A stretch of DNA of 64,000 bases from an uncultured Verrucomicrobiota bacterium (GTDB lineage: Bacteria; Verrucomicrobiota; Kiritimatiellia; CAIQIC01; Lenti-01). Below are positions 38,398-62,769 of this stretch, one piece after another. Numbering within the stretch: the stretch's first letter is position 1; every line of letters begins with the position of its first letter. The stretch covers positions 42,002 through 106,001 of the forward strand of contig CAYMTY010000003.1 in assembly GCA_964393515.1 (NCBI GenBank), read 5' to 3'. Made by a program: the position numbers and the translations under genes. The notes beneath the pieces are model-generated. The model had not been told where the DNA came from. It ran no database searches and worked only from the letters and a program-made list of their open reading frames with translations.

Positions 38398-38407
38398 GCT
38401 GAGCTCC

Positions 38408-39898
38408 TCAAAACTGAAAATAGATGAACGGGGCCACGCCTTCCGGGCCCAGGGCCAGGATTACGGTGAGCGCAACGGCCGCGGCCGCGCCCAGGGCCCA
38501 CGCCGGCCAGGCGGACAGCCGCCGCCACACCCGCCACAGGCGGTCGCCGTCGAAAAACTGCGTCAGGAAGCCCGCCGCCACCATGGCCAGCGCCAGCCCG
38601 CTCCACAGGGTCGCGGCCGGCACGGCCGACCGCCATTGCACGAGGCCCCGCAGCAGGGCCGCCGCGGTTTCGAGATTGCCGCCGCGGAACAGGATCCAGG
38701 AGAAGCACACCACGTGGAAGATCCAGATCCGCCCAAGCCAGGCGACGGCGGGATGGGCCGGCGGCGCGTTCCGCCGGGAGAGGCCCAGCCACTCGCGCGC
38801 CTTGCGTTCGCCGGCCAGATAGACCCCGTGGAATGCGCCCCACAGCAGGAAGGTCCAGGCCGCGCCATGCCACAGCCCGCCCAGCAGGAAGGTCAGGAAC
38901 AGGTTGAGATAGGTGCGCCCCGCCCCCCGCCGCGAGCCGCCCAGGGGGATGTAGAGGTAGTCGCGCAGCCAGGAGGACAGCGAGATGTGCCAGCGCCGCC
39001 AGAAGTCCTGCAGGGTCGTCGCGAAATACGGCGCGTTGAAGTTGCCGGGAAAGCGGAAACCCAGCAGCAGGGCCGTGCCGATGGCGATGTCGGAATAGGC
39101 CGAGAAATCGCAGTAGATCTGGACCGCGTAGGCGTAGACCGCCAGCAGCAGGTCGGGGCCGGCGTAGCGTTCCGGCCAGGCGAACACGGGGTCCGCCAGC
39201 CGCGTGGCCAGCCAGTTGGCCACGACGATCTTCTTGAACAGGCCGCTCAGAATGAGGAACAGGGCCCGGCCGGCCTCGAGCGGCGCGGCGCGGCCCGGCA
39301 TGGCCTCCATCTGCGGCACGAGCGCGGCGGCGCGCACGATGGGCCCCGCTACGAGCTGCGGGAAAAAGGCCAGGTAGTTCGCGAAATCGAGCCACGAGCG
39401 CGCCGGGGCGGCCTGGCGGCGGTGGACATCGAGCACGTAGCTCAGCGCCTGGAAGGTGAAAAACGAAATGCCCACCGGCAGGACAATCTGCGACAGCCAG
39501 GGATAGACGGTCTCCTGCACTGCCACCAGCCCGCCCACCGCCGCCGGCCCCAGCGCCCGGCACAAGGGCCGCAGCAGCGGAAACAGCGTGTCGGCGACAA
39601 GGAAGCCGGTGTATTTGAAGAACGCCAGCAGCCCCAGGTTGAAGCCGACGGTCGCCGCCAGCAGGCCGCGGCGCGGCTGGCCGGCCACCGCCCGCCGGTC
39701 GAGTTCCCGGGCGGCGGCATGGTTTAGCAGGGCCGAGCCCAGCAGCAGCAGCGCGAACTTCCAGCTCCAGAAGCCATAGAAGAACAGGCTGGCGCTGAGG
39801 AGAAACGCCTTGCGCACCCGCGGCCGCCCCGCCAGCGCCCAGTGCACCTGGAACACCAGGAAGAAAAAGACGGCGAAGGCGGTGGTCGGAAAAAGCAT
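38408..39898 (-). CDS. Membrane-bound O-acyltransferase (MBOAT; AlgI/DltB/PatA-like)
   Basis: Multi-TM protein with the conserved MBOAT His region (...WRRWHISLSSWLRDYLYIPLGG...). Confidence 0.85.
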   Translation of the reverse strand: MLFPTTAFAVFFFLVFQVHWALAGRPRVRKAFLLSASLFFYGFWSWKFALLLLGSALLNHAAARELDRRAVAGQPRRGLLAATVGFNLGLLAFFKYTGFLVADTLFPLLRPLCRALGPAAVGGLVAVQETVYPWLSQIVLPVGISFFTFQALSYVLDVHRRQAAPARSWLDFANYLAFFPQLVAGPIVRAAALVPQMEAMPGRAAPLEAGRALFLILSGLFKKIVVANWLATRLADPVFAWPERYAGPDLLLAVYAYAVQIYCDFSAYSDIAIGTALLLGFRFPGNFNAPYFATTLQDFWRRWHISLSSWLRDYLYIPLGGSRRGAGRTYLNLFLTFLLGGLWHGAAWTFLLWGAFHGVYLAGERKAREWLGLSRRNAPPAHPAVAWLGRIWIFHVVCFSWILFRGGNLETAAALLRGLVQWRSAVPAATLWSGLALAMVAAGFLTQFFDGDRLWRVWRRLSAWPAWALGAAAAVALTVILALGPEGVAPFIYFQF

Positions 39899-39924
39899 GG
39901 CGGCTCCGGTTCCGGTTTCTCTCG

Positions 39925-42900
39925 TCAGGGCGGCGGCGGCAGCGCGAGCCGCCCGTCGGGGCCCAGCAGGTAGAGGCGGGGCGCAGTCCGGTCATGGTCC
40001 GCCGGCGCCGGCGGGGCGTCCGGAGCCTGCAGGGCCACCGCCCAGTCCGCCCGGCTTGGCGGAATCAGCACGCTGCCGAACGGGAGCTCGCGGAGCCGGA
40101 TTTTCTCGCCCGGCTTGGGCAGCAGGCCGTCGTTGGCCTCCGGCCGGGCCACCTGTTCGCCGCGGGATTCCTCGCCCGCGCGCGGCGTGTTCCACAGCGC
40201 GGCCTCGGTCTGCAGCACGAGGACGTTGGCCGGGTGCTCCTCGAGGGCGGCCGCCAGGGCAGCGAGCCACGGGGCGGGCGCGGGCGAGCGCCGCTTGAGC
40301 ACGGCGCCGGCCAGGCGGTTCGTCCGGATGAACTCCACCACCCGGGCCGGATCGATGTCGCCGTCGTAGGACAGATCAATGGCCGGCAGCAGGCGGATCT
40401 GGTGGAAGGCCGAGAACATCCGCAGCACTTCCGTCCCGGCCGGCAGGCCGGCCGGCAGGCTGCCGTCGGGATTCTGGAATACCCAGGCCGGCACGAGGGC
40501 GGAGAAGCCGCCCACGAACGGCCGCAGGCTGGCGACCTGCGCATTCGGATCGCCGGGCGGGACCAGCACCAGCGCCGGCGGCTGCGGTTCGCAGTCCATG
40601 CGCAGGATGCGCGCGCGCGCCACGCCCAGGTCGAACGCGAACGGCGCGATGCCCCACCAGCCGTAGGCGACCTCCGGGGGAATCCCCAGCGGGGCGTCGA
40701 ATATTTCGCTGCCGTTGACGAACCCGCGGACGCCGTCGCCGCGCACCTCGAGCCGCATCTTCAGGCCGCCGGGCGGGCGCACCCACGGGCGCACCTGGTG
40801 GGCCAGCATTTCGCCCGCGGCCCAGGCCTGCAGGTGGATGAACCCGTCCTCGTCGAAACCGAAGCGGATCATCGCGCGCGAACTGCGCCGGGCGTAGAGC
40901 CAGAAGAAGCCCTGCGATTCGTCCACCAGCACTTCCAGAAAGCCGTCGCGCAGGAGTTCCGAGCGCCGCAGGCGCAGGTAGGTCTCGGCCTGGTTGACGG
41001 CGGCGCGCAGCTCGTAGCGGCCGCGGTCCACCAGGCGGATCCCGGAAGAGGCGATCCAGCCGTCGGAGAGCTGGCCGGACTGGAAATCGTCGGACACGGG
41101 CTGCTCCAGCGGCAGGAAGTTCCCGTAGATTTCCCGCTGGCGGTCGTTGCGGCCGCGGGCCTGCGTGCGGATGAAATCGAAGAAGACGCCGGATTCGGGG
41201 TAGGTCAGCAGCTCCATTTCCAGCAGGGCGTGTCCGAACGGGATCCGGGCGTCGGGGGCGCGGGCCAGTTCCAGCAGGCCGTGCAGGGTCTGGTAGCGTT
41301 CCGCGGGGGTGTCCTGCAGGTTGAGGAGAGCGACCCGGGCCGGCAGATTCTGCGGCGCCTCGCGCACGAGGGTGGCGACCATGTCGCGAGCTTCGGTGCG
41401 GCGGCGGTGGCGGTCGAGCCACTGGGCCTGGGCGATCAGGATGTCGGGGTTTTCGGGAAAGATCCGGGCATAGAGGTTGAGTTGCTCGCGCGCCTCGTCG
41501 TCGCGGGCCATTTTCTCGAGGAGTTCCGCGCGGCGGACCACGAGCTGGATCTGGCCGGGGCTGGCTTCCAGGCTGCGGGTGAAGAATTCGAGGGCCCGCG
41601 GCAGGTCTCCCCGCTGAGAATGGGCCTTGCCGATCAGCGACAGCGCCTCCGCGCTCTGCGGATCCTCCTGCAGCCAGCGCTCCCAGCTGGCGATGGCCCG
41701 GCCGTAGTCGCCGTCCTGGTAGGCCAGGTAGCCTTCGCGGCGGAGGGCGTCCTGGCGGGCCTTGGGCGAGAGCTCCGCCAGCGGCAGCTGGCGCGTCGCC
41801 AGCTGGTAGTAGAGGTTCAGGTGCATGTCGGCCGCCGGCGGGGCCGGCACTTCCTCGGTCACCAGCACTTCCAGCCCGGCGTTTTCCAGCGCCGGGGCCA
41901 GCGCGGGGGTGTCGACGGCGATCACCGCGCCGGGGAACAGGGCGGCGATGGACGCGAACGAGGCCAGCCGCGCCACCGCGGCCGGGAATTGAATGGCCAG
42001 TTTCATGTTCCGTTCCTTTGTCTGTTGATGAACGCCTTGCAGCCAGGGGACGAGGGTGGCGATGTCCGCCGCAGCCACTTCCCGGCAGTCCAGATGGATG
42101 CCGTCCACGGCCATTGCGGCGGCCTCCTGGACCGGCAGTTCCGGCGGGATCTGTACGGCCAGGGCCGCGGACCGCAGGATGATGCGCGGCAGGATCCGGA
42201 TGCTGTGGATCCGGGCGTAGGTCCGGAGCGTGGGCTCGTCCCATTTCGGCAGCACCAGCGGGATGGCCTTGACCACGTCCATCCAGGGCGGGCTCACCGC
42301 CCCCAGCCGGTGGGCCTGCCGGCCGAGTTCCCCCATCAGGTAGAGCGGCGCGAAGGCCGGATCGGCTGGCCACTGCTTGAGCACGTGGTGCGGCCGGGGA
42401 AACTCCAGCGAGAGCACCTGCGCCGCGGCGGCGCCCGGTGCAGGGTCCCACACCTCCAGGCCGAACAGGCCGGGCTGGACGTCGCCCAGCAGGTCCAGCG
42501 GCTCCTTCAGCAGCATTTCGCCGTCGAGCAGCGCGAACAGGTTGCGGCCATGAATCGAGAGCTCGAGTTCGCGGATCTTGCCCGGCGCCGCGCCGGCGTC
42601 GCGAACGACCGCCTGCGTGAACTCCGCGGCGCCATACACCTTCTGGTTGACCCAGCAGTGGCCTTCCGTATCGAAAATGATGCGGACTCCGGCCTCGCCG
42701 CCGGGCAGCGCGTGCAGCCGGAGGCCGAACTGGCCGGCGACCACGCGGAATTTCATGCGCAGGGTGAAATCGTCGAACAGGTCGCTGGCGATCATCCAGG
42801 CCAGGGCCCCCGTGGTGGGCGGGAACGGGGTGTCCCGGGCCGCTTCGGGACTGACGGCTTTCAGCCACAGGGTCCCGTCGGGATATTCGGTCAGGCCCCA

Positions 42901-44055
42901 GTCCGTCAGCCAGCGGGCCGGGGCCAGCGGCTGCGTCAGGTTCCAGGGCAGGACAGCCCAGCCGGATTCCACGGTGTCCAAAAACTGCTCGAGGGACCAG
43001 TCCGGCCGCACCCGCAGGCGGTTGAGTATCCGCGGGTCGGTGTGGCGCGTGTTCAGCAGGAAGGGGCCCTGGGTAAAGCCCAGGCCGTAGAACCGGCCCA
43101 CTTCGCCCAGGTTCAGCACCCGCGTCGGCACGCCGCGGGGGTCGTACTGTCCGTAGTCGCCGTAGGGGAACGCAAAGGCCAGCGGCGACTGGTCCATGCC
43201 GGTCTTGAATTCGGCGGTCATTTGTTCGTGGTCGGCGCGGATCCGGGCGAGGAACTCCTCCGGCCGCTCCAGGCGCTTCTCGGCGGGGAACCACCGGGGC
43301 GTGGAGAAGAAGTTGCCGGTTTCGCCGGCGGGGCCGGCCGGGATGCGCTGGAAGCCCGCAAAGGATTCCGCGCCGATGTCCCAGGTTTCGGACCGCGCCA
43401 TGTCGCGCAGGATGGGCCACCGCAGCGCGCCCGGCTCCCGGTTGCGGATCGCGTCGGCGCGCACGAACATGACGGCCTTCCAGCGGTGGGCCCGGAGGAT
43501 GTCGCGGGTCTCCAGGTAGGAGCTGCGCTTGGCCTGGCCCAGGGTGACGAGGACGGCCTTGCGCGGCAGACGCCGGCCCGTCTCGTAGAACGCCTTCACG
43601 TCCGCCAGGCCGATGGGATTGTAGCCCCGCTCGCGCAGGGCCTGGATGTGCTGGCGGAACTGTTCGCGGCTGACCTCCTCGGGACCCTGCACCTTGCCGG
43701 CGCTGACGCCGCCGTAGGCCAGCGCGAGAAAGCTGTCCGCATCGCGCGGGCCGGTGGTTGCGGGCTTGAAGCGCAGCCGCTGGTAGATCGTCCGCGCCGG
43801 CACCCACAGCGCCACCAGCACGCAGATGCCCGCCAGCAGGTAGAGCCAGGCGCGCAGGTTGCGGTCGGCCCGCACCGGCTGCGGCCGCGCCCAGCCCGGC
43901 GGCGGGGCCGGCGGCGGCGCGGGGGGCGGCAGCGGATCCGGACCGGCCGCGGGGCTGGCCGGGACGACGGGCGGCGGCGGCGCGGGAGCGGCGGCCGGGG
44001 CGGAAAAATCTTCCGGGGCGCCGGCGGGGGGGATTGGGCGGAGCGGCCGGTTCAT
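39925..44055 (-). CDS. Large membrane-anchored multidomain protein: Pro-rich N-terminus + TM + polysaccharide deacetylase (CE4) + TIM-barrel glycoside-hydrolase-like region + TPR repeats (PgaB/PelA-like)
   Basis: TM LRAWLYLLAGICVLVALWVP; NodB-like region (VLVTLGQAKRSS...AVMFVRAD...); TPRs (YLAYQDGDYGRAIASWERWLQEDPQSAEAL...). ATGA overlap with the GT2 gene. Confidence 0.65.
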   Translation of the reverse strand: MNRPLRPIPPAGAPEDFSAPAAAPAPPPPVVPASPAAGPDPLPPPAPPPAPPPGWARPQPVRADRNLRAWLYLLAGICVLVALWVPARTIYQRLRFKPATTGPRDADSFLALAYGGVSAGKVQGPEEVSREQFRQHIQALRERGYNPIGLADVKAFYETGRRLPRKAVLVTLGQAKRSSYLETRDILRAHRWKAVMFVRADAIRNREPGALRWPILRDMARSETWDIGAESFAGFQRIPAGPAGETGNFFSTPRWFPAEKRLERPEEFLARIRADHEQMTAEFKTGMDQSPLAFAFPYGDYGQYDPRGVPTRVLNLGEVGRFYGLGFTQGPFLLNTRHTDPRILNRLRVRPDWSLEQFLDTVESGWAVLPWNLTQPLAPARWLTDWGLTEYPDGTLWLKAVSPEAARDTPFPPTTGALAWMIASDLFDDFTLRMKFRVVAGQFGLRLHALPGGEAGVRIIFDTEGHCWVNQKVYGAAEFTQAVVRDAGAAPGKIRELELSIHGRNLFALLDGEMLLKEPLDLLGDVQPGLFGLEVWDPAPGAAAAQVLSLEFPRPHHVLKQWPADPAFAPLYLMGELGRQAHRLGAVSPPWMDVVKAIPLVLPKWDEPTLRTYARIHSIRILPRIILRSAALAVQIPPELPVQEAAAMAVDGIHLDCREVAAADIATLVPWLQGVHQQTKERNMKLAIQFPAAVARLASFASIAALFPGAVIAVDTPALAPALENAGLEVLVTEEVPAPPAADMHLNLYYQLATRQLPLAELSPKARQDALRREGYLAYQDGDYGRAIASWERWLQEDPQSAEALSLIGKAHSQRGDLPRALEFFTRSLEASPGQIQLVVRRAELLEKMARDDEAREQLNLYARIFPENPDILIAQAQWLDRHRRRTEARDMVATLVREAPQNLPARVALLNLQDTPAERYQTLHGLLELARAPDARIPFGHALLEMELLTYPESGVFFDFIRTQARGRNDRQREIYGNFLPLEQPVSDDFQSGQLSDGWIASSGIRLVDRGRYELRAAVNQAETYLRLRRSELLRDGFLEVLVDESQGFFWLYARRSSRAMIRFGFDEDGFIHLQAWAAGEMLAHQVRPWVRPPGGLKMRLEVRGDGVRGFVNGSEIFDAPLGIPPEVAYGWWGIAPFAFDLGVARARILRMDCEPQPPALVLVPPGDPNAQVASLRPFVGGFSALVPAWVFQNPDGSLPAGLPAGTEVLRMFSAFHQIRLLPAIDLSYDGDIDPARVVEFIRTNRLAGAVLKRRSPAPAPWLAALAAALEEHPANVLVLQTEAALWNTPRAGEESRGEQVARPEANDGLLPKPGEKIRLRELPFGSVLIPPSRADWAVALQAPDAPPAPADHDRTAPRLYLLGPDGRLALPPPP

Positions 44056-45575
44056 CCGCGGGTCCCCCAGTGCTTACCGCGCACGGTGGCCATGGCCCAG
44101 TAGATCTGCCAGCTGAAGAACGCCATGTAGCTGAGCGTGTAGAGGAAGCCCGCCCACCAGTGGCGGCGGCCGGTCCGCTCCCAGTAGTGGAGCGTCCACA
44201 CCGCGGTGATGGCGCCGACCCCCAGCAGGTAGGACCAGGCCAGGTTGGCCCCGCCCGCCAGATAGGCCATCACCGGCGCCACCACGAGTGCGGAGATCAT
44301 GACCACGGGCTCGATGATCGGCATCCACATCATCGCGTACCAGGACAGGGCCGGCACCGGATGCTTGCGCCACATCCAGCGGCCCACCTTCACGATCTCG
44401 CGCAGGTAGGAGCGCGCCCAGCGCGCCTGCTGCCGCGTGTACTGCTGCCAGCCGTCCGGCGCGATCGTCGTCGCCAGCGCCTGGTCGTGGTAGACGACCT
44501 TGTAGTCGCGCAGGATCAGGTTCGTCAGGCTCCGGTCGTCGCCGAAATTGCCGTATTCACCCATCACCTTCGCATTCAGCCACTCGTCCAACACGTGCAG
44601 CACGCACACCCGCCGGTAGGCCGAGAAGCAGCCCGGCAGGCAGCTGACGCAGCCGCTCACGCTCTCCGCTGCCTTCATCACCTTGTAGGAAAAGAAGTAC
44701 CGGACGTCCTGCATGCGGGTCAGGAGGTTGGCCTGCGCGTTTTCCACGTCGCAATGCCCGCTGACGCCGCCGACGGCCGGATCGGTGAAGCCCTGCATCA
44801 GCTTCTGGATCGAGCCCGGGAAGATGAAGGTGTCCGAATCCACGCACACCATGTATTCGCCGCGCCCCAGCAGCACGCCCACCGCCCAGGCGTGGCTGAG
44901 CCCGCGGTTGGCGGCGAAATCCACCACCACCAGCTGCGGATGCCGCGTCTGCGCCGCCAGCATTTCCGCCAGCGTGCGGTCCGTCGAACCGTCGTTGACG
45001 ACCACGGCCTCGAGCTTGTCTGCCGGATAGCGGGCCGCGAAGATGCGTTCGATCGTCTGCCGGATCACCCGCTCCTCGTTCATGCAGGGCACCAGCACCG
45101 TCACGGTCGGTTCGTATTTCTGGTCCGGCGGCGGCACGTACATCGCGGCGATCAGGAAGCGCGACACGACGAACAGGCCCGCCACCAGCGAGTAGATGCT
45201 CACCAGCGGCTGGTAGAAGTAGTTCCCCGCGCTGCGCAGCTGCATGAACACCGCCGTCGCCAGCATCAGGATCGCCACCAGCAGGATCAGGGCCGCCAGC
45301 CACTTCGGCGGCCGGCGATACAGCTTCGCCATCCGGGCCCGCGCCACTTCCAGCGAGGGATAAGCGGCCGGCGGCGCCAGCGGCACCTCCGCCACGCTGC
45401 GCGCCAACGGCTTCCGGCAGTAGGGGCAGGTCACCGGCGCCGGCGTGCCATGCACATGCACCGTCACGCCGCAGGCAACGCACTGGCAACGCGTGATCCG
45501 CGCCGTCTGGACCTCTGGTCCGCCCTGTTCTGGCTTGTGCTCTGCTTCCATCGCGTTTATGAAATGATTGAACAT
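44052..45575 (-). CDS. Processive family-2 glycosyltransferase (PgaC/IcaA/NodC-like polysaccharide synthase) with N-terminal zinc-ribbon
   Basis: D, DxD (VDSD), and Q(QA)RW (QQARWARS) motifs; multiple TM helices; CxxC...CxxC N-terminus. Confidence 0.85.
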   Translation of the reverse strand: MFNHFINAMEAEHKPEQGGPEVQTARITRCQCVACGVTVHVHGTPAPVTCPYCRKPLARSVAEVPLAPPAAYPSLEVARARMAKLYRRPPKWLAALILLVAILMLATAVFMQLRSAGNYFYQPLVSIYSLVAGLFVVSRFLIAAMYVPPPDQKYEPTVTVLVPCMNEERVIRQTIERIFAARYPADKLEAVVVNDGSTDRTLAEMLAAQTRHPQLVVVDFAANRGLSHAWAVGVLLGRGEYMVCVDSDTFIFPGSIQKLMQGFTDPAVGGVSGHCDVENAQANLLTRMQDVRYFFSYKVMKAAESVSGCVSCLPGCFSAYRRVCVLHVLDEWLNAKVMGEYGNFGDDRSLTNLILRDYKVVYHDQALATTIAPDGWQQYTRQQARWARSYLREIVKVGRWMWRKHPVPALSWYAMMWMPIIEPVVMISALVVAPVMAYLAGGANLAWSYLLGVGAITAVWTLHYWERTGRRHWWAGFLYTLSYMAFFSWQIYWAMATVRGKHWGTRG

Positions 45576-45772
45576 TATACATTATCTTGGTCTGCTAAAG
45601 TAGAAAATAATAGGAAATTAGTAGAGTAAATCAAAAATCGGCTTTACCCCCTTTCTGGATTCAGGTTGCGTCCGCGGTTCGGCCGGTGGAAACCCGGCGG
45701 GCTCCCCGGGGCTCCGTTGACAGAGCCGGTCTGTGCGGATAAGCTGGGGTACTTCGAACGGAGGAAACAAAC

Positions 45773-46153
45773 ATGGCGAACATTCTGATCATTGACGACG
45801 ACAAGGCAGTCCGGGATTACCTCGCCACGCTGGTTTCCCGCTTGAACCATCAGGCTTTCCTCGCGGCCACTTGCGCCGAAGGCCTCGCCCAGATGGCCGA
45901 TCCGGCCATCGAAATCATCATCGCCGACATCTACCTGCCGGACACCCCGCCGCTCGATGAATGGATCGACCAGCTGAAGGCCCAGGCCGCCGGCCGCCCA
46001 CTCATCCTGATCACCGGTGAACCTTCGGAGGCGCTCAACGCCAAAGCCCAGAGCGGCGAAATCATGGCCTTTCTCACCAAGCCCTTCGAACTGGCCTTCA
46101 TCAAGGGCCTGCTGGCCCAGGCCCTGAAAATCCTGGCCCACCGGGAGAAGTAG
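45773..46153 (+). CDS. Stand-alone CheY-like response-regulator receiver domain
   Basis: DD pair (IIDDDK), phospho-acceptor D (IIIADIYLPD), T/S and K (TKPF) all present. Confidence 0.8.
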   Translation: MANILIIDDDKAVRDYLATLVSRLNHQAFLAATCAEGLAQMADPAIEIIIADIYLPDTPPLDEWIDQLKAQAAGRPLILITGEPSEALNAKAQSGEIMAFLTKPFELAFIKGLLAQALKILAHREK

Positions 46154-46167
46154 CGCGGGAACGGCCC

Positions 46168-46911
46168 ATGATCGACAAGACCCGACTCGGCATCCCCTTC
46201 CTGGACGACCACTTCGGGGGCATCTACCGCAAACGTCCCGCCTTGTGCGTCGGACGCCTGGGCAGCGGCAAGACCATCGCCGCGCTCCATGCTCTGCTGC
46301 AGAGCGTGCAAGAGGGCGAACGGGGCCTGATGCTCTCCGCCTGGCGGGCCCAGGACCTTGTCAGCGTCGCCGCCAATCTGGGCCTGCCCCTGGCCGCGGC
46401 CGTCGCCCAGGGCCGCGTCATCCTGCTCGAATACACCAACATCATGCCCTCCCCGGAGTTCGAGCAGAACCTCACCCTGCCGCCGGGCAGCTTCATGGAG
46501 TTCCAGAACATCATTGAAGCCAACGGCATCAGCCGCGTGGTCATCGATACCATCCTGCCGTGGGTCGCCATCCCGCAGGAGGACAAGCTCGCCCAGCATG
46601 TCTATTCCTTCGTCCACGCCATGGAGCGGATGGGCGTCACCAGCGTGTTCACCCTGCCCCGGCCCGCCTCGGCCCTGGCCTTCACCCTCCGAAACCTGGT
46701 CGAAGACCTCGTGCCCGTCGCCGTCACCCTGGATGTGGACGCCGGCGGCCGCCATACCCTTCTGGTGAACAAGTTCCTCGGCAGCGAAACCCTGCCTCCG
46801 CCCGTTTCCTTCTCCATCGTCCACGGCATGGGCATCGTTCCGGCCGCCGAACAGCCGCCCACCCCCGCCCCGCGCGCGCCGATCCGGTTCGCCGCCGCCT
46901 TCCCCCCCTGA
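46168..46911 (+). CDS. KaiC/RecA-superfamily single-domain ATPase
   Basis: GIPFLDDHFGGI... followed by Walker A GRLGSGKT and Walker B VVIDTI; KaiC-like layout. Confidence 0.6.
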   Translation: MIDKTRLGIPFLDDHFGGIYRKRPALCVGRLGSGKTIAALHALLQSVQEGERGLMLSAWRAQDLVSVAANLGLPLAAAVAQGRVILLEYTNIMPSPEFEQNLTLPPGSFMEFQNIIEANGISRVVIDTILPWVAIPQEDKLAQHVYSFVHAMERMGVTSVFTLPRPASALAFTLRNLVEDLVPVAVTLDVDAGGRHTLLVNKFLGSETLPPPVSFSIVHGMGIVPAAEQPPTPAPRAPIRFAAAFPP

Positions 46912-46937
46912 CGTGCGAGGATCGCGACAAGGACGCC

Positions 46938-47801
46938 ATGTACGCCGACTATTGGAATCTGAAGGGCAATCCGTTCCTCAATGTCATCGATCCGCGCTTC
47001 TGGTTTTCCAGCGAGCCGCACGAGGAAGCCATCGCCCGCTTCTGCTTCCTGGCCGAAAACGGCCGGCTGGCCGGCGTACTGACCGGCCCCTACGGCGTCG
47101 GCAAATCCGCCGTCCTCAAAACCGTCGCCGCCCGCCTCGAAGCCGGCCGCCGGCCGGTCCTCCGCCTGGATGCCATTCCCGGCGGCCAACTGCCCATGGC
47201 CCGCCAGATCCTCGCCAGCCTGCGGCTGGATTGCGCCGCCACGAACCTGCCGGAAGCCCTGATGAGCTTCTGGCAGGCCACCCAATACCGCGCCGACAGC
47301 CTGGTCCGCACCGTGCTGTGCTTGGACGAAGCCCACCAGCTCGCCGCCGACAACGGCCTCGCCCTCGTCCACTTCCTGACCAACCTCCGCCTCGTCAACC
47401 GCAAGACCCAGGTCGAGGAGCCGTTCTTCACCATCCTGCTCGCCGGGGCGCCCGAGCTCCTGCCCGCCTTGCAAACCCTGCCCTCCCTCCGGGAACGCAT
47501 CCAGATCGTCTACGAGCTGCCGCCGCTCACCGCCCCCCTCACTTCCGCCTACATCCAACACCATATGCGTGCCGTCGGCGGCGATATCTGGAGCTTCGCC
47601 GAAGACGCACTCGCCGCCATCTTCCGCCTTTCCGGAGGCCTGCCCCGGCGCATCAACCTCTTGTGCGACACCGCCCTCCTGCTGGGCTTCGCCGCCAAAG
47701 CCCCCCAAGTCACGCCAGCCATTGTGGCCCAGGCCGCCGCCGATGTCGGCCTCACCTCCCTCCCGCCCCCCGAACCCGTCCAACCCCGGAGCTGCCCATG
47801 A
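46938..47801 (+). CDS. ExeA/GspA/MshM-like AAA ATPase (PEP-CTERM-locus secretion ATPase type)
   Basis: N-terminal MYADYWNLKGNPF (ExeA-like FGL..PF motif); Walker A GPYGVGKS; Walker B LCLDEAHQL. Confidence 0.7.
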   Translation: MYADYWNLKGNPFLNVIDPRFWFSSEPHEEAIARFCFLAENGRLAGVLTGPYGVGKSAVLKTVAARLEAGRRPVLRLDAIPGGQLPMARQILASLRLDCAATNLPEALMSFWQATQYRADSLVRTVLCLDEAHQLAADNGLALVHFLTNLRLVNRKTQVEEPFFTILLAGAPELLPALQTLPSLRERIQIVYELPPLTAPLTSAYIQHHMRAVGGDIWSFAEDALAAIFRLSGGLPRRINLLCDTALLLGFAAKAPQVTPAIVAQAAADVGLTSLPPPEPVQPRSCP

Positions 47802-48121
47802 CGGAATGGAGCGAACTGTTTCTCAATCCCGTGACGGTCATTGCCATCCTGCTGGCGCTTTTCTTCGTAGCCATGACCTACTTCCGCCATCTCGGCGTGA
47901 AACACGCCCGCCAGGAACAGAACCGCGGCGGACACAAGCCCTACCAGGTCACGAATCCCTATGCCCCGCCGGCGCCTGTTTCCGCCGCCCCGCTCGACGC
48001 TCCCGCCGCCCCGCAACGGCTGGATCAAGCCCCGCCCCGAAAGGTGTTCCGCCAGATCGGCCGGGATCCGGCCGTCACCGGCGCCCGGGCAGGCGACTCC
48101 TCGGGCTACGTTTGGGAGTAG
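47798..48121 (+). CDS. Small single-TM proline-rich protein (ATGA-coupled to the ExeA-like gene)
   Basis: ORF track frame; TM VTVIAILLALFFVAMTYF. Confidence 0.4.
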   Translation: MTEWSELFLNPVTVIAILLALFFVAMTYFRHLGVKHARQEQNRGGHKPYQVTNPYAPPAPVSAAPLDAPAAPQRLDQAPPRKVFRQIGRDPAVTGARAGDSSGYVWE

Positions 48122-48128
48122 GCCCGCC

Positions 48129-50303
48129 GTGCGCCGGCATTGGCCAACGGCCCTGTGCTTCGCCGGCCTGCTTCTGCATGCCGCCGCCGGCCCCGCCGAT
48201 TTCGCCGCCATGGATAACCCGGCCGCGATCGTCCCCGGTGCGTCCGCGCCGCCGGCCCGCGCCGCCCCCGCCGGCGGTGTCGAATTCGTCCTGCCCTTCG
48301 CCGCCGGCCCCGATCGCGTCTACTGGGACATTCCCCTCGGCTCCTTCCCCGGCGCCGCCACCGTCATCGTGCTGGATTTCACCTGTCCCGATCCCGCCGC
48401 CACCCGCGCTCTCACCCTCCACCTGCGCATCGGCCATGAGTGGCTCTCCGCCCAGAAATCCATCGAAACCGCCGGCCGCCAGACGCTCGTCTTCCGGCGC
48501 GCCGATTTCGCCGGCGAAGGCGCCGGCGGCAACCCCGACTGGCGCCAGGCCGAAACCCTCCGGTTCTCCCTGTGGCGGGGCGCGGCCCGCGATGCCGTGC
48601 TGAGCCTGCACGCCATCCGGGCCGAAGCCGCCTCCGTCGCGGTCGTCGCCGGCACGGGGCCGTTCACCGCCCCCGGCGAAGGCGGCCTCGCCCGCCAATG
48701 CGCCGACCGCGCCCTGCGCCTGCTGGACCGCGCCGGCCTGCCGGCCGATCTGGTTTCGGACGAACTCGAGCGCCTCGACCTCCGTCCCTACCGCCTCCTG
48801 GTCCTGCCCTACAATCCCGCCCTGTCCCCGCGGCAGGCCGCGGTTCTCGCGCGCTTCGTCAAACGCCGCCAGGGACGCCTCGCCGTCTTCTACCTTTCCC
48901 ACGACCGGCTGGCCGCCGCCCTCGGTTTCAAATGCCTTCCCTACGCCACCCAGGCCGAAACCTGGCACACGGTTTCTTTCGACGCCCCGTCCGTTCCGGG
49001 CCTGCCGGCGTCCATGTCCCATTTCACCCAGCACCTGCTGCCCGTCCGCGCCGCCACTCCCGGCGCCCGCAACGTCGGCCGCTGGCTCGATGCCGACCAC
49101 AACCCCGACCGCTCGCTGCCCGCCTCCGCGGTTTCGCCGCGCGGCGTCTGGTTCTCGCACATCCCGCCGCGGGCCTCCCCCGCCGCCGTCCAATGGTTCC
49201 TCAGCGCCCTCACCGCCGCCGACCCTGCCTACGCCCCCGCCCGCGACCGGTTCCACGCGGCGGCGGAAGCCCGCGCGGCGCAGGTGCCCGGCGTCCTCGC
49301 CGCCGTCCCGGCGCCGGCGGATGAAATCCGCGCCGTCTGGAGCCGCCCCCTTTCCCCGCGCACGCGCGACGAAATCCTCGCCGCGCTCGCCGCCGGCGGC
49401 ATCAACACCCTTTTCGAACAGCTCGGCACCGGCGGCTATGCCCTTTACCAGGCCGGGGGCACCGTGCCCGAAGCCGCCCCCGGCAAACCGCGCGCCCGCG
49501 CCCCTTTCGACCGCATGCTCCTCTCCGCCCGCACCAACCATATGGAACTCCACGCCTGGGTCGTCTGCTGGAACCTCGACGGCCTGCCCGCCGAACGCCT
49601 CGCCGAACTGCGCGCGGAAGGCCGCCTCATGCAGGCCGCCGGCGGCCAGGAACTCCCCTGGCTCTGCCCCCTGCATCCGGAAAACCGGGCCGCCCTCCGG
49701 GCGCTGTTCTCCGACCTCGTCCGCCGCGGCGTCGCCGGCATCCACCTCGACTACATCCGCTACCCCGCCCGCGCCGGCTGCTACTGCCCCCGCCACCGCG
49801 CCGCCTTCGAAACGCACCTCGGCCGAAGCGTCGCCGCCTGGCCCGCCGACGTCCTCCCCGGCGGGCTCCACGCTGCCGCCTTCGAGCAGGTCCGCACCGC
49901 CGACCTGACCGCGTTCGTCGCCGCAGCCGCCCGGGAACTGCGCGCGCTCAATCCGGCCCTGCGCCTGTCCGCCGCGGTCTATCCCACACCCGCCGCCGCC
50001 GCCGAAAACGGGCAGGACTGGCCCGCCTGGCTCCGCGCCGGCGCCCTCGATTTCGCCTGCCCCATGCTGTACACGGCCGACCCCGCCCGCTTCGCCGACT
50101 GGCTCGACCTCTGCCTCGCTGCCGCCGCGCCCGGAATGATCCTCCCCGGAATCGGCACCGGCGCCGACGAGGCCCAGCTCGACGCCCTCGGCGCCGCGGA
50201 ACAGATCGCCGCCGCCCGCGCCCGCCGCTGCCCCGGCTTCGTCTTCTTCCCCCTCGACTCGGACCTCTCCGACCTGATCCTCCCCGCCCTCGTCCGGCCC
50301 TGA
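48129..50303 (+). CDS. Secreted GH-like TIM-barrel protein (GHL10/YngK-like C-terminal domain) with N-terminal beta-sandwich and GH42-trimerisation-like domains
   Basis: Putative GTG start giving signal peptide MRRHWPTALCFAGLLLHAAAGPA. C-terminal GINTLF...HAWVVCWN...GIHLDYIRYP typical of the GHL10 family. Confidence 0.55.
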   Translation: MRRHWPTALCFAGLLLHAAAGPADFAAMDNPAAIVPGASAPPARAAPAGGVEFVLPFAAGPDRVYWDIPLGSFPGAATVIVLDFTCPDPAATRALTLHLRIGHEWLSAQKSIETAGRQTLVFRRADFAGEGAGGNPDWRQAETLRFSLWRGAARDAVLSLHAIRAEAASVAVVAGTGPFTAPGEGGLARQCADRALRLLDRAGLPADLVSDELERLDLRPYRLLVLPYNPALSPRQAAVLARFVKRRQGRLAVFYLSHDRLAAALGFKCLPYATQAETWHTVSFDAPSVPGLPASMSHFTQHLLPVRAATPGARNVGRWLDADHNPDRSLPASAVSPRGVWFSHIPPRASPAAVQWFLSALTAADPAYAPARDRFHAAAEARAAQVPGVLAAVPAPADEIRAVWSRPLSPRTRDEILAALAAGGINTLFEQLGTGGYALYQAGGTVPEAAPGKPRARAPFDRMLLSARTNHMELHAWVVCWNLDGLPAERLAELRAEGRLMQAAGGQELPWLCPLHPENRAALRALFSDLVRRGVAGIHLDYIRYPARAGCYCPRHRAAFETHLGRSVAAWPADVLPGGLHAAAFEQVRTADLTAFVAAAARELRALNPALRLSAAVYPTPAAAAENGQDWPAWLRAGALDFACPMLYTADPARFADWLDLCLAAAAPGMILPGIGTGADEAQLDALGAAEQIAAARARRCPGFVFFPLDSDLSDLILPALVRP

Positions 50304-50352: not shown

Positions 50353-51204
50353 ATGAACCCGAACGCCCTTGCGCCCTACCTCGACCGCACCCTCTGGGCC
50401 GGCTCCTCGTTCAGCCTGACCCTGGGCGACGCCCTACTGGCCGCCCTGCTGGCCGCCGGCGGCTGGGCTGTCAGCCGTCTGGCCGCGGCATTCGTGGCCA
50501 AGCGGCTCGCCGTCCGCCTGCTGCATTCCCCCCGCGCGCGGGATCTCGCGCCGCGCTGGACCTTCTTCTTCCTGTGGGCGCTCTTCATCCTCGCCGCCCT
50601 GCGCGTCCTCGGCGTGCCGCTCACCCTGTTCCAGTTCCTCGGCGGCGCCATCGCCCTGGGCTTCGGCTTCGGCGCGCAGAATCTCTGCAGCAACCTCATC
50701 AGCGGCGTCATCATCCTCGTTGCCCGCCCCTACCGCGCCGGCGACATCGTCGAGGTCGACAACCAGGCCGGCACCGTCCTCTCGATCGGCCTGCGCGCCA
50801 CCGAAGTCCGCACCTTCGACGGCATCAACCTCGTCGTTCCCAACTCCAATTTCCTCTCGAACACCATTGTCAACCGCACCAACTACGAGCGCGCCCTGCG
50901 CGGCCTCGTCACCCTCACCGCCGCCTACGGGTCCGACTCGCGGCTCGTCGCCGAAACCCTTGCCGCCGTCGCCGCCGCCCACCCCGCCGTCCTCACCGCC
51001 CCCGGCCGGGCCCCCTGGGTCATCTTCGACGACTTCGGCGCCCACGGCCTCGTGTTCAAGCTCTTCTTCTGGGTCGACACCACCCGCGCCAGCGTCGCCG
51101 CCACCGCCAGCGACATCCGCCACGCCGTCCTCGAAGCTTTCCGCGAAAAAGGCCTCGCCATCCCCCTCCCCCAGCTCGACGTCCACCTCCCCAAGGCCCC
51201 GTGA
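50353..51204 (+). CDS. mscS: Small-conductance mechanosensitive channel (MscS family)
   Basis: 3 TM helices then the MscS beta-domain (GDIVEVDNQAGTVLSIGLRATEVRTFDGINLVVPNS). Confidence 0.85.
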   Translation: MNPNALAPYLDRTLWAGSSFSLTLGDALLAALLAAGGWAVSRLAAAFVAKRLAVRLLHSPRARDLAPRWTFFFLWALFILAALRVLGVPLTLFQFLGGAIALGFGFGAQNLCSNLISGVIILVARPYRAGDIVEVDNQAGTVLSIGLRATEVRTFDGINLVVPNSNFLSNTIVNRTNYERALRGLVTLTAAYGSDSRLVAETLAAVAAAHPAVLTAPGRAPWVIFDDFGAHGLVFKLFFWVDTTRASVAATASDIRHAVLEAFREKGLAIPLPQLDVHLPKAP

Positions 51205-51223: not shown

Positions 51224-51378
51224 TTTTCCATGCTGTGGAAAAAAGTTTTCCATGGCGTGGAAAAATCCCGGAAAAGTTTTCCATGGCGCGGAAAAAACAG
51301 CCCTGTTTTTCCACACTGTGGAAAATATTTTTCCATGGCGTGGAAAAACCGCAAAAAAGTTTTCCATACTGTGGAAAA
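51224..51378. repeat. Array of six 19-bp imperfect palindromes TTTTCCAY-N3-GYGGAAAA with irregular 3-12 nt spacers (not CRISPR)
   Basis: Seen directly: units at ~51224, 51246, 51277, 51307, 51329, 51360. Each unit is two inverted TTTTCCACA-like 9-mers; the array is followed by CTCCGC. Confidence 0.6.
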
Positions 51379-53420: not shown

Positions 53421-53558
53421 ATCCCCCCCCCCGCTATCCGGCCCGCACGGAGGCGGGCCCTCCATAAACCTGTTTTCGCATTTCACACTCTGGAGGGATG
53501 ACCTCCGTGTCGTCCGTCCCGGCCGGGCTCCTGCTGGCGCGGCAGACAGCCTTCGCCA

Positions 53559-55124
53559 TCACGGCCCGACACGGACGCGGTAATGCCCCATGGCGTTCGT
53601 GTCCGGAGGAAGCGCCAGAAATGCCGGTTTCGCCGTGGGCGGCAGGTTGGTGAATACCACTTCCCAGCTCGTGCCCGTGGCCGTCAAATCCACGCACCGT
53701 TCCAGATATTGCGTGGCCCGGCTGCCTCCCATCCAATTCACCCGGAATTGGTCGTTGGAAGCATCCACCCCCAGCATCGCCAGCCGCGAATCGGACTGCG
53801 TTGGATCGGTATCCGCCCGGACTTCCGCGCCGTCCGGCATGCCGTCCCCGTCGGAATCCGCCGCTGGATTCAGATATTCATAGGCACCCATGTCCATGAT
53901 GGCCACGCCATCGGCATTGCCGTCCAGCGGTCTCGGCACTCCGGCCAAATCGGCGCCCGGCGCCAGATCGGCATTGCTCCCCGCATCGATGCACGGGGAG
54001 TTCGACTGCAACCGGTAATCCCCAGCCACAAAATTGGTTCCGGACCAGTTGCCGGGATCGATGAATACCGGATCGTTCGTAATATTGCCCGCCCCATTCG
54101 TCGGCATCGGCACGGTACAGCAATTTATGAATATTCCATTGGAATAGTTATTTCCCCAATTCATGTAGACGATGCTGTTTAGCTGCGTACTGCAGGATGT
54201 GCCTCCGGCTCCCCACCGACCACTCTGGTTTCCAACAACCGTACAGTTGTTTAAAATGCATCTGTCCGCCCCTAATTGGTTGTTTACAACAATGCAATTG
54301 TTCAGTGTCGCTACACATCCCCCACTTCCCCAATTATTTACCAGTATGCAATTGTTTAGCTCAGATTGAGCCCCGCCAGCACAAAACACACCCCCACGGC
54401 CGTGGTTGTATGAGAATACACAGTTATTAATTACGGAATGTATAACAGTCCCAGAACCCAGATTTGTGTTGAAAAGAAAAAAGCAGTTGAAACACATACC
54501 CGATCGGACGGCACTACCAGTATAGCCAATATTATTCGTAAAAGTACAATCGATCATGGTCCCTCCGAAAGCAGCACCACCACGCCATGCTGCATTGCAT
54601 GAGAAGATGCAATTGGATACGATTACATTTGTGCCCTGACACCAGATTCCGCCACCATTCTCTTCTGTACCATTATTATCATTAACGGACGTTGAACCCT
54701 GGGCCAGCGTGAATCCAACAAGTGAAGCCCCATTTGTCAACCATACGCATCTCACTGAGTTGGGCCCCAAATTAAATACATATACTGTTGGATAATTTGT
54801 ACCCATAATCATGGTCGAATCCGGCCCATTCACCGACCGCAACGTAAGCGGCTTGTCGATCACGACCCGATTCGTAAGTGTGAAAACACCACCCGCCGGA
54901 CGTCCGCCCTTATCATAAATGCCGTTGGTGACCCAAACGGTATCGCCGGCGGCGGCGGCATCGATGGCGGCTTGGATGGTCTGCTTGGCGTTGGCCCACG
55001 AAGTGCCCGCGCCGGCATCGCTGCCCGAAGGCGAAACAAAGAACTCCGCCGCCCAAAGGTCAACCGCCGCCGCCAGCATGATTATCCAACCGATGGCATA
55101 ATAATGATTTCGGTTCCGGCTCAT
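53559..55124 (-). CDS. Secreted right-handed parallel beta-helix repeat protein (adhesin/lyase-like fold)
   Basis: Signal peptide; FVSPSGSDAGAGTSW...AAAGDTVWV N-terminal motif; many NN[CV] beta-helix rungs; Asp-rich calcium-binding-like segment; lower GC. Confidence 0.55.
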   Translation of the reverse strand: MSRNRNHYYAIGWIIMLAAAVDLWAAEFFVSPSGSDAGAGTSWANAKQTIQAAIDAAAAGDTVWVTNGIYDKGGRPAGGVFTLTNRVVIDKPLTLRSVNGPDSTMIMGTNYPTVYVFNLGPNSVRCVWLTNGASLVGFTLAQGSTSVNDNNGTEENGGGIWCQGTNVIVSNCIFSCNAAWRGGAAFGGTMIDCTFTNNIGYTGSAVRSGMCFNCFFLFNTNLGSGTVIHSVINNCVFSYNHGRGGVFCAGGAQSELNNCILVNNWGSGGCVATLNNCIVVNNQLGADRCILNNCTVVGNQSGRWGAGGTSCSTQLNSIVYMNWGNNYSNGIFINCCTVPMPTNGAGNITNDPVFIDPGNWSGTNFVAGDYRLQSNSPCIDAGSNADLAPGADLAGVPRPLDGNADGVAIMDMGAYEYLNPAADSDGDGMPDGAEVRADTDPTQSDSRLAMLGVDASNDQFRVNWMGGSRATQYLERCVDLTATGTSWEVVFTNLPPTAKPAFLALPPDTNAMGHYRVRVGP

Positions 55125-55158
55125 GCGCTTCCTCCAAAGAAATGCCCCACCAGTCTAT

Positions 55159-55992
55159 TCATTCGGCCATAAGAATTCCAACGAAAGTTGCCGAGATCGC
55201 GCGGCAAACCTCGGCAAACTCGATATCCTTGGCATAATCGAAATCCCGGCGATAGGTCTTCCAGCGCCCGGCCATGACCGCGCTGGCTTCGATTGCCCGC
55301 ATGATTTCCTTGTGCTGTTTCAGCAACTGAAACGTGCCGCGGCGCCTGGCGGTCGCCGGCAACGCCTTCCGCAGGACTTCCCAATCGATTTTCCAGGCAT
55401 ACAAGCGCCGCAACAAATGAACGTCGTAGAAGTCCCGCATCCGCGTGTTCAGATCGCCCCGCGCCAAGATGGTTTCCAGTTTCTCCGCCAGGATGGTTTC
55501 CAGGTTGTAGGCCAACACCCGGATGGCGCGCGATCCGGGCCGGACCGGATAATCGAACGGCATTTCGCGCGGCGTGATCTTGTCGCCCGTCGTGAGGTCT
55601 ACCTTCAAGGGCACCGCCATGGGCGGGCATTTCGCCTCCAGCGACAGCCGCAGACCGCCGTATTCGTCGCCTTGCCGGATCTCTTCGAGGCCCTTCACGG
55701 CGAACGAGACTCCGTCGTCGATCCGCACGGCGCAGATATCCCGGAACATCCGCCGAACGCCGGCGGCGGTGACCGGCATCCGCCGGATGGTTCCGTCCAT
55801 GTCCATCGTGGTCCGCGTGTCGAGTCCCGCCAGGGCGGAAATCAGCAATCCGCCCTTGAGAACGAAGTTCCGCCGATAGTTGGACAGCGAGATGCGCTCC
55901 AGCAACCGCTCCAACATGTGGTTTTGGAGGGCCAGCTGCGCGGAAATACCCTTTTTGCGCGCCACCATTTTCATCCGGGCCTTCAACTGCAT
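55159..55992 (-). CDS. AbiEii/AbiGii-family nucleotidyltransferase toxin (type IV TA / abortive infection)
   Basis: DUF1814-like sequence (VLKGGLLISAL...DMDGT...) with an NTase-fold GS...D.D motif; immediately downstream of the AbiEi-like gene. Confidence 0.7.
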   Translation of the reverse strand: MQLKARMKMVARKKGISAQLALQNHMLERLLERISLSNYRRNFVLKGGLLISALAGLDTRTTMDMDGTIRRMPVTAAGVRRMFRDICAVRIDDGVSFAVKGLEEIRQGDEYGGLRLSLEAKCPPMAVPLKVDLTTGDKITPREMPFDYPVRPGSRAIRVLAYNLETILAEKLETILARGDLNTRMRDFYDVHLLRRLYAWKIDWEVLRKALPATARRRGTFQLLKQHKEIMRAIEASAVMAGRWKTYRRDFDYAKDIEFAEVCRAISATFVGILMAE

Positions 55993-56000
55993 CGCCGGCT

Positions 56001-62764: not shown

Positions 62765-62769
62765 GGCGG

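Follow-up and report, generated by a model that had tools for sequence, protein, structure and literature searches.

To our knowledge, all well-studied synthase-dependent exopolysaccharide (EPS) systems, namely those for cellulose, alginate, Pel, and poly-N-acetylglucosamine (PNAG), are switched on post-translationally by a receptor for cyclic di-GMP (c-di-GMP). In the cellulose system, BcsE combines a degenerate RecA/KaiC-like domain with degenerate REC and GGDEF modules, and BcsF, a short transmembrane (TM) protein, recruits BcsE, which binds and delivers BcsQ, a P-loop protein (PMC7439463). ArlH (FlaH) of the archaellum binds ATP without hydrolyzing it and modulates the oligomeric ATPase ArlI at a membrane machine (PMC8978795), and direct activation of an EPS enzyme by a single-domain response regulator is on record (PMC12802240). 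Here we analyze a five-gene set at positions 45576-50303 of a 64,000-nucleotide (nt) stretch, hereafter the window, of contig CAYMTY010000003.1 from an uncultured bacterium of the Kiritimatiellia. The set encodes a stand-alone receiver, a KaiC-like protein, an ExeA-like AAA+ ATPase, a small membrane protein, and a secreted GHL10 protein, and faces the operon of a family 2 glycosyltransferase (GT2) synthase. We consider it reasonably probable that it is the dedicated regulatory/accessory operon of a synthase-dependent secretion system for an N-acetylglucosamine (GlcNAc) polysaccharide, specific to Kiritimatiellia-type bacteria of the Planctomycetes-Verrucomicrobia-Chlamydiae (PVC) group. The genomic link to the synthase is solid; the mechanism is one that we infer, as are the direction in which control runs, the contacts between the proteins, the nature of the polymer, and the substrate of the GHL10 protein.

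Five co-directional genes fill 45576-50303, and Pfam and NCBIfam scans bear out the domains given for them in an earlier note made from the letters of the window:

45773-46153, + strand: stand-alone CheY-like receiver of 126 amino acids (aa) (PF00072, E-value 6.6e-12)
46168-46911, + strand: single-domain KaiC/RecA-like P-loop protein of 247 aa (PF06745, 76.1 bits against a gathering threshold of 26.6)
46938-47801, + strand: ExeA/GspA-like AAA+ (AAA_22) ATPase of 287 aa, soluble (PF13401, 45.9 bits against 27)
47798-48121, + strand: small single-pass membrane protein of 107 aa (TM helix N-terminal), its translation coupled to that of the AAA+ gene
48129-50303, + strand: secreted GHL10 glycoside-hydrolase-like protein of 724 aa (PF02638, 52.2 bits against 27.9)
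45576-45772: shared divergent intergenic region of 197 nt (GC content 0.51 against 0.70 for the locus)
45634-45607, - strand: promoter-like site for the synthase operon, in the shared intergenic region
TTGACA (45717-45722)-N17-TAAGCT (45740-45745), + strand: promoter-like element, 28 nt upstream of the receiver start

The product lengths (126, 247, 287, 107, and 724 aa) equal those of the gene calls on identical public contigs. The gene coordinates of the earlier note hold overall, apart from two starts: the ExeA-like gene begins at ATG 46938 and the GHL10 gene at GTG 48129. A GHL10 start at ATG 47961 was rejected, as it would overlap the small gene, whereas GTG 48129 gives a signal peptide. 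The tight coupling proposed for the set is confirmed by intergenic spacings of 14, 26, -4, and 7 nt, the negative value being the ATGA overlap of the AAA_22 gene and the small membrane gene at 47798-47801, and no convincing internal terminator was found within the five-gene set. The five genes form one operon. It is transcribed away from the synthase out of a shared low-GC intergenic region, as had been described. A TTGACA-N17-TAnnnT element is seen again in relatives (L020, L024, L025, L027), and a k-mer search of the intergenic regions for a common operator returned just this promoter-like element, in close relatives. An Rfam search of the whole window placed no known riboswitch in the shared region; its matches were a tRNA and a thiamine pyrophosphate (TPP) riboswitch elsewhere.

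On the other side of this region lies the synthase operon, with genes three to six spanning 33730-39898 on the - strand:

44052-45575, - strand: GT2 processive synthase (NodC/PgaC/chitin-synthase-like) with an N-terminal Cys4 zinc-ribbon-like motif (Chitin_synth_2, 96 bits)
39925-44055, - strand: membrane-anchored protein of 1376 aa with a PgaB-like CE4 deacetylase and TPR repeats (Pfam, NCBIfam, and PDB matches)
38408-39898, - strand: MBOAT O-acyltransferase (public-contig gene calls, Pfam)
38122-38397, - strand: protein of 91 aa (public-contig gene calls)
37341-38084, - strand: SGNH/DUF459 esterase-like protein (public-contig gene calls, Pfam)
33730-37344, - strand: protein of 1204 aa with TPR repeats and a CE4 deacetylase (public-contig gene calls, Pfam)

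The GT2 scores 157 bits with the NCBIfam NodC model and 124 bits with the PgaC model (cutoff 422), both under the equivalog cutoffs, and the PgaB model scores 82 against a cutoff of 923. Besides designed TPR proteins, the best PDB sequence matches of the 1376-aa and 1204-aa proteins are PNAG N-deacetylases (PgaB, BpsB); these searches returned no porin match. The 1204-aa protein ends in LGLQYNF, with a terminal Phe like that of outer-membrane proteins, and its last ~500 residues have no family match; this part may represent a PgaA/BcsC-like porin fused to the deacetylase. The Pfam and NCBIfam scans of the cluster gave no PilZ, GGDEF, or PgaD-like domain. Judged by its domains, the operon would encode a synthase-dependent system for a GlcNAc-based, PNAG/chitin-like polymer that is partly de-N-acetylated and O-acetylated.

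The linkage of the two operons was followed in a scan with one genome per species, which gave 41 loci, all in metagenome-assembled genomes (MAGs) of PVC bacteria, and in a second scan with a more distant subfamily, which gave 36 metagenome loci. The window proteins were mapped onto the 41 loci, and the counts follow a lenient rule for evaluability. The receiver gene adjoins the KaiC-like gene in 39 of 41 evaluable loci and the AAA_22 gene is found downstream of the latter in 34 of 36. GHL10 is present in 17/23 evaluable loci and the GT2 synthase within the fetched locus in 25/36, a count that is lowered because co-directional variants place GT2 out of reach. The small membrane protein occurs in every locus with room for it, and the whole 11-gene cluster is kept in four relatives at 42-57% identity. 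Three gene orders were found. The first is divergent, as in the window. In the second, the modification genes lie upstream and are co-directional (L007, L048). In the third (clade 2), a REC-PAS protein, which is the counterpart of the receiver, the KaiC-like protein, AAA_22, a small TM protein (YKWN), GHL10, GT2, and a deacetylase-TPR protein are encoded in this order on one strand. Many of the 36 metagenome loci belong to clade 2, with a KaiC-like protein that is 26-31% identical, and in L081 the GHL10 open reading frame (ORF) ends at the very base where the GT2 ORF begins. Locus L052 (AAA_22 36% identical) has the REC, KaiC-like, and AAA_22 genes beside GT2 and deacetylase-TPR genes and is divergent like the window. 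In all, some 80 loci of Kiritimatiellia-type PVC MAGs and metagenomes keep the five genes beside those of the synthase, at identities down to 26-30%. This arrangement is far beyond chance, and a linkage that survives three rearrangements and a divergence to 26-31% identity is strong evidence of shared function.

The conservation check that the earlier note had called for thus has a clear answer, with the triad of receiver, KaiC-like, and ExeA-like genes recurring as neighbors in 41 species-representative genomes and 36 metagenome loci. The view of the set as a functional unit tied to an EPS synthase is likewise upheld by synteny in three gene orders, by fusions, and by co-loss. The pairing had also been called unusual, and it is: a profile search with the KaiC-like protein among 1.84 billion representatives gave only ~90 clusters (50% identity) at E<=1e-30, to which the triad is limited.

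Gene fusions link the same proteins. P0025 is a clear fusion of receiver and KaiC-like protein, and in P0291 a single chain runs from a KaiC-like domain with the tail motif through a Pro-rich linker to AAA_22. P0313 carries a weak, degenerate receiver-like extension on the KaiC-like protein (E-value 0.006). A further candidate for a REC-KaiC fusion, P0317, was rejected since its receiver extension is not supported. The fusions argue that the cytoplasmic and anchor proteins work as one complex. Co-loss is seen in L055, a locus 86-88% identical to the window at the nucleotide level, in which the equivalent of 33381-45772, and with it the entire synthase operon, is missing and cleanly replaced. 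On the same contig, 46849-48617 is also missing, which removes the KaiC tail, AAA_22, the anchor gene, and the 5' end of the GHL10 gene. The product of this second deletion (P0002) is a KaiC-like protein with the GYLWE terminus of the anchor. Seen on a single contig, this pattern looks as if the whole system had decayed once the synthase was lost, and the locus is in effect a natural knockout strain.

Three clade 2 loci (L062, L071, L081; e.g., L081 4828-7658) have a gene for an MshE-like T2SSE ATPase with a c-di-GMP-binding MshEN domain and a T2SSF platform gene directly upstream of REC-PAS. These neighbors recall the mannose-sensitive hemagglutinin (MSHA) pilus operon, which includes the ExeA-like MshM; this may be coincidence.

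The receiver has the features of a CheY-like single-domain response regulator, i.e., a DD acidic pocket, an acceptor Asp, a Thr/Ser, and a Lys. Among the orthologues, D8 is conserved in 41/43, D9 in 43/43, D52 in 42/43, S/T81 in 42/43, and K103 in 43/43. With these residues conserved, the protein is very likely phosphorylated.

For the KaiC-like protein, 88 close homologues were found, with identities of 42% or more. It lacks the two tandem RecA-like domains (CI and CII, ~500 aa) of KaiC: its one 247-aa domain matches one KaiC half at a time, and the NCBIfam KaiC equivalog scores 52.7, below its cutoff of 408. Walker A (G-x-x-G-[ST]-G-K-[TS]) is kept in about 45 of 46 orthologues and the Walker B residue D127 in all 46. 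The positions that align to the catalytic pair E77/E78 of KaiC CI are A58/W59, with [GASN..][WYR..] family-wide; a Glu is found at the E77-aligned position in 1/46 orthologues and at the E78-aligned position in 0/46. The Arg-finger position is Leu in 41/46, with K-F/Y-L-G in place of K-x-R-G. This degenerate pattern, with K-Y-[LQ]-G, spans the whole family of ~90 representatives, and genuine KaiC-type FEE and KxRG motifs appear only below it. The C-terminus consists of a Pro-rich linker and a conserved PIRF(S/A)(S/A)AF tail, which reads PIRFSSAF in the close clade and [IV]RFS[DNS][IV]I in distant clades. Since Walker A and B are kept while the Glu pair and the Arg finger are absent, the protein is probably a nucleotide-binding, non-hydrolyzing adaptor. 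Its designation as an ATPase in the earlier note is accordingly unlikely to be right.

The AAA_22 protein, by comparison, has a complete AAA+ motif set, with Walker A, a D-E pair, N149, R151, and R237 conserved. An M-Y-x-x-Y-W-N-L-x3-P-F motif is invariant at the N-terminus of the family; this start presumably resembles the N-terminal motif of ExeA-family proteins. The AlphaFold2 (AF2) model (predicted local distance difference test, pLDDT, 91.4) comprises a bare AAA+ base and lid. By sequence, the protein has no close solved relative; by fold, the model is nearest ORC/Cdc6 and TnsC, with MuB also among the similar ATPases. The best NCBIfam model is TIGR03015 (XrtA/PEP-CTERM-associated ATPase) with 95.2 bits against a cutoff of 324.5, and no exosortase is found among the genes scanned at the locus. 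The true PEP-CTERM locus L054 looks different: there, the ATPase stands with EpsH and Wzz/Poly_export genes and without a REC or KaiC-like gene. As TIGR03015 falls far under its cutoff and an exosortase is missing, this is not a PEP-CTERM locus, and the suggestion that the ATPase marks one of the PEP-CTERM/EPS type does not stand.

For the small membrane protein, there is no Pfam or NCBIfam family. Its C-flank is more positively charged than its N-flank in 36 of 36 orthologues, which indicates an N-out/C-in topology. In the same 36 orthologues, only ~8-15 residues would lie outside, with the bulk of the protein cytoplasmic. The cytoplasmic tail is disordered and carries KPYxVxNPY or PIKLxDPF motifs and, in most orthologues, an FRQ[FIY]-like motif. 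The C-terminus is YxWE in 35/36 orthologues and YKWN in clade 2. The bare description as a small TM protein was correct as to the TM segment and undersold the rest, since the family is conserved, its tail is cytoplasmic, and the Y-x-W-[E/N] end is invariant. A YxWE-type end also occurs on the KaiC-like chains P0268 (AGYRWE) and P0379 (LYEWE), both outside the close clade, which suggests that YxWE is a portable docking peptide.

The AF2 model of the GHL10 protein (pLDDT 88.7, predicted template modeling score, pTM, 0.89) shows a signal peptide followed by a beta-sandwich (~50-175), an alpha/beta domain (~185-345), a helical linker, and a TIM barrel (~400-724). Foldseek finds Cwp19 (E-value 1.7e-13, TM-score normalized to the target 0.65) and the C-terminal domain of PgaB (E-value 5e-11). 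The motif H539-x-D541-Y542-x-R544-Y545-P546 is invariant in 24 sequences. The profile score, the Cwp19-like TIM barrel, and the conserved D-Y motif place the protein in the GHL10 (Cwp19/DigH) family; DigH is a GHL10 member as well. HxDYxRYP probably corresponds to the Asp196/Tyr197 site of Cwp19 (PMC5765458). The protein had been proposed as a secreted hydrolase that could remodel the matrix: the signal peptide and the TIM-barrel enzyme hold, and the PgaB C-terminal domain is among the nearest folds.

How these proteins may act together can be outlined as follows, in the reading that is best supported. An unlinked histidine kinase would phosphorylate the stand-alone receiver. The receiver would act on the KaiC-like, nucleotide-binding and probably non-hydrolyzing adaptor, for which ArlH and the degenerate RecA-like domain of BcsE offer parallels, and the adaptor would in turn control the oligomerization or activity of the catalytically competent ExeA-like AAA+ protein. 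The small N-out/C-in protein would tether the complex at the inner membrane, the putative docking peptides being its cytoplasmic tail with the Y-x-W-E terminus and, on the KaiC-like protein, the IRFS tail. This membrane-proximal complex would gate or assemble the GT2 synthase and thus fill the role that the c-di-GMP receptors PgaD, BcsE/BcsA-PilZ, PelD, and Alg44 have in other systems. The exported, periplasmic GHL10 protein would bind or trim the nascent polymer, like the PgaB C-terminal domain, BcsZ, PelA, and AlgL, and would thus be the enzyme of this kind that all synthase-dependent systems have. Going further, we put forward, tentatively and as a possibility rather than an expectation, a c-di-GMP-independent phosphorelay control of the EPS synthase by a receiver/pseudo-KaiC/AAA+/YxWE-anchor complex, a convergent counterpart of the enterobacterial BcsE/F/Q/R vestibule, in which the YxWE carboxy terminus of the anchor would plug into the synthase or either P-loop protein.

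Several findings weigh against the mechanism outlined first or the assignment behind it. A histidine kinase is linked to the locus in no clade, and the nearest in the window (23339-25411) is ~20 kb off. The loss of the catalytic Glu residues in the KaiC-like protein is read from an alignment. That protein shows no homology to E. coli BcsE (hhalign probability 0.1%), and none of the five proteins has a GGDEF/GIL or BcsF Pfam match; with no detectable sequence homology, the parallel is one of analogy or convergence, not of membership. In structure, the GHL10 domain is best matched by an enzyme that lyses peptidoglycan and not by one of EPS. L044 and L050 have receiver and KaiC-like genes without AAA_22 or a nearby synthase, in the context of ABC/FtsX and ThiF genes (L044) or of isocitrate dehydrogenase (L050), and in L011, L012, and L049 the REC/KaiC-like/AAA_22/small-protein set has no synthase within reach. 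All carriers found are MAGs or metagenome contigs, with named cultured isolates making up 0/41 genome matches; MAG and sample names among the matches point to anaerobic digesters, biofilms, and sediments.

An alternative is an ExeAB-like envelope module, in which the AAA+ and small proteins act like ExeA and ExeB and the GHL10 protein is a hydrolase of peptidoglycan glycans; jointly they would open or remodel the wall for insertion of the TPR/porin export apparatus, and regulation of the synthase would not be their task. ExeA-ExeB is an ATPase with a single-pass partner that is needed for secretin assembly through the peptidoglycan (PMC4098917). The AAA_22 protein belongs to the ExeA/GspA superfamily, its relatives carry the Joint Genome Institute (JGI) label ‘general secretion pathway protein A’, and the gene order is alike in that the gene after that of the cytoplasmic AAA_22 ATPase domain encodes a single-pass membrane protein. 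Cwp19 is a GHL10 peptidoglycan-lytic enzyme (PMC6016235) and E. coli DigH a cell-separation glycosyl hydrolase (PMC12288456), and a penicillin-binding-protein-type D,D-carboxypeptidase encoded in the window implies that peptidoglycan is made. We nevertheless judge this explanation unlikely. In contrast to ExeA/GspA, the AAA_22 protein has no TM segment and no peptidoglycan-binding domain, as its bare base-and-lid model also shows. The small protein, with its bulk cytoplasmic in 36/36, has the opposite bulk topology to ExeB/GspB and no T2SSB domain. The cluster contains no secretin or type II secretion system gene, the abutting GHL10 and synthase ORFs of clade 2 speak for a tie to the synthase, and the receiver, the KaiC-like protein, and their fusions would be left unexplained.

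The loci without a synthase could also mean that the receiver and the KaiC-like protein, possibly with an ORC/TnsC-like AAA+ partner, form a broader signaling or nucleic-acid switch that is next to EPS genes for co-regulation and has no physical part in the secretion machine. The occurrence of the pair in the unrelated contexts of L044 and L050, the set in L049, which stands beside STAS and GAF-PP2C signaling genes with no synthase nearby, and the fold of the AAA+ protein, which is nearest to ORC/Cdc6, TnsC, and MuB, ATPases that bind DNA as initiators or in transposition, are in line with this. Such a switch seems quite improbable to us, since none of the proteins has a DNA-binding or other output domain in the Pfam and NCBIfam searches or the AF2 model, the gene of the membrane anchor is coupled in translation to that of the AAA+ protein, the synthase linkage outlasts three rearrangements and 26-31% identity, and the AAA+ and anchor genes are lost along with the synthase operon in L055. 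CapB-type kinases are activated by the C-terminal tail of the membrane protein CapA, and a split version of such bacterial tyrosine kinase (BY-kinase)-like trans-activation could be imagined, with the cytoplasmic tail of the anchor inserted into the nucleotide site of the KaiC-like protein and its terminal Glu/Asn standing in for the missing catalytic carboxylate, which would give a membrane-dependent ATPase or autokinase that times export. The KaiC-like protein keeps Walker A/B without its own Glu pair and Arg finger, the anchor end is invariant (Y-x-W-E/N), and a YxWE end sits on the KaiC-like chain itself in P0268, P0379, and the deletion variant P0002, but this idea, though attractive, is purely speculative and highly doubtful, as the clade 2 anchor ends in Asn and not Glu, P0002 stems from a deletion in a decaying locus, and P0379 is a 122-aa fragment.

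We retain the reading of the set as a regulatory/accessory operon of the synthase, and note some further features of the window. Two genes follow the operon:

50353-51204, + strand: MscS channel gene, found in this position elsewhere only in near-identical strains and L055
51666-53420, + strand: GH20 beta-N-acetylhexosaminidase gene, beside the module elsewhere only in near-identical strains

Both were rejected as parts of the module because their place next to it is kept only in near-identical strains and, for MscS, in the close relative L055. The GH20 protein has no obvious signal peptide; GH20 is the family of dispersin B. A 19-nt palindrome (TTTTCCA-N5-TGGAAAA) is present in six copies at 51224-51378, in the gap between the MscS and GH20 genes, and in two at 28942-28980, after a metallophosphatase gene. 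These 8 matches compare with 0.01 expected by chance, and the six-copy array is partly conserved in L055. The arrays look like hairpins of the repetitive extragenic palindromic (REP) kind or a repeated operator.

On its far side, the synthase operon is directly flanked by a thiamine block (28994-33443), with a TPP riboswitch (59 bits, 32699-32810, - strand) just upstream of an ORF for a permease of the cytosine/purine/thiamine family and thiamine genes (Phos_pyr_kin, TMP-TENI) after it. Farther away, 2799-8624 (- strand) encodes a 1941-aa RHS/YD-repeat protein, the 3' end of which lies in a low-GC stretch (GC 0.555 at 3001-4000), a pattern typical of polymorphic toxins in which the C-terminal domain has been swapped. 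Genes for PTS enzyme I (a PEP-utilizing enzyme) and HPr kinase/phosphorylase are close together at 9959-13003 (- strand). The region ~53500-60200 has a lower GC content (0.49 at 54001-55000) and is probably a defense island gained by horizontal transfer, with genes for a secreted TSP3-repeat protein, a toxin of the AbiEii type, and a REase-ARP nuclease protein. A gene for a UvrD-like helicase (60788-63799) lies just past this region.

Each of the five proteins comes from a known superfamily, and synthase-dependent EPS secretion is a known type of system. The set of receiver, pseudo-KaiC, ExeA-like AAA+ protein, and Y-x-W-E anchor at a PNAG/chitin-like synthase, with no recognizable c-di-GMP receptor, appears to be undescribed. 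We found no description of the triad, or of such an EPS system in Kiritimatiellia, in the literature searched, the coverage of which was incomplete and is no proof of absence, and a cluster look-up gave no names for the five proteins in any source. If our proposal is true, it would add a second, phosphorylation-based logic for gating EPS synthases, give a first functional context to the widespread, uncharacterized soluble ExeA-like ATPases of EPS loci, and provide a bacterial example of a hydrolysis-dead KaiC-like adaptor as a counterpart to archaeal ArlH. The locus is also a candidate matrix polysaccharide system for Kiritimatiellia. The uncultured state of the carriers limits immediate testability, while 11 genes are compact enough for heterologous reconstitution.

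Among the known systems, PgaABCD (PMC5933820) resembles the locus in its GT2 of the PgaC/NodC/chitin-synthase group, its PgaB-type CE4 N-deacetylases, its TPR-rich export proteins, and a periplasmic TIM-barrel protein, here GHL10, with the fold of the PgaB C-terminal domain. It differs in that the deacetylase, TPR, and hydrolase-like modules are spread here over other, much larger proteins, that MBOAT/SGNH O-acetylation genes are added, and that no PgaD was found. The AAA_22 protein has its likeness to the TIGR03015/MshM type in that relatives of it occur in EPS loci (L054).

Cyanobacterial KaiC shares with the KaiC-like protein the Pfam KaiC domain, a receiver-type partner (KaiA/CikA-type (pseudo)receivers), and a functional C-terminal tail; KaiA binds the A-loop/tail of KaiC. 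Here, however, there is one domain and not two, no Glu pair or Arg finger, and no KaiA or KaiB. ArlH, too, consists of one RecA/KaiC-like domain (~230-250 aa) that has Walker A and B, and its structure (PDB 4yds) is matched by the profile of the KaiC-like family with an E-value of 1.5e-7. Architecture and motif pattern are compatible with an ArlH-type regulator. The partner is AAA_22 and not of the T2SSE/ArlI type, the machine would export a polysaccharide, the input is a bacterial receiver, and the IRFS tail at the C-terminus is peculiar to the family.

The E. coli bcs locus has a divergent bcsEFG operon that faces the synthase operon, with a 4-nt overlap of bcsE and bcsF. BcsE, like the proteins here, brings together a degenerate RecA/KaiC-like module, a receiver-type module, and a P-loop NTPase partner (BcsQ). 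BcsF resembles the small protein in being a short membrane protein of N-out/C-in topology, and in both cases the gene shares 4 nt with the one before it; both operons end with a periplasmic enzyme that acts or would act on the polymer (BcsG there, GHL10 here). In contrast to BcsE, the locus has no GGDEF or I-site and hence no evident c-di-GMP sensing, its receiver is catalytically intact and a separate protein, and its KaiC-like protein keeps the P-loop that the N-terminal domain of BcsE has lost. BcsQ is a SIMIBI-class P-loop NTPase, whereas the NTPase here is AAA+ (AAA_22), and the polymer would be of the GlcNAc type and not cellulose. By its layout, the best analogue of the set is the BcsE/BcsF/BcsQ cellulose regulatory complex of E. 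coli.

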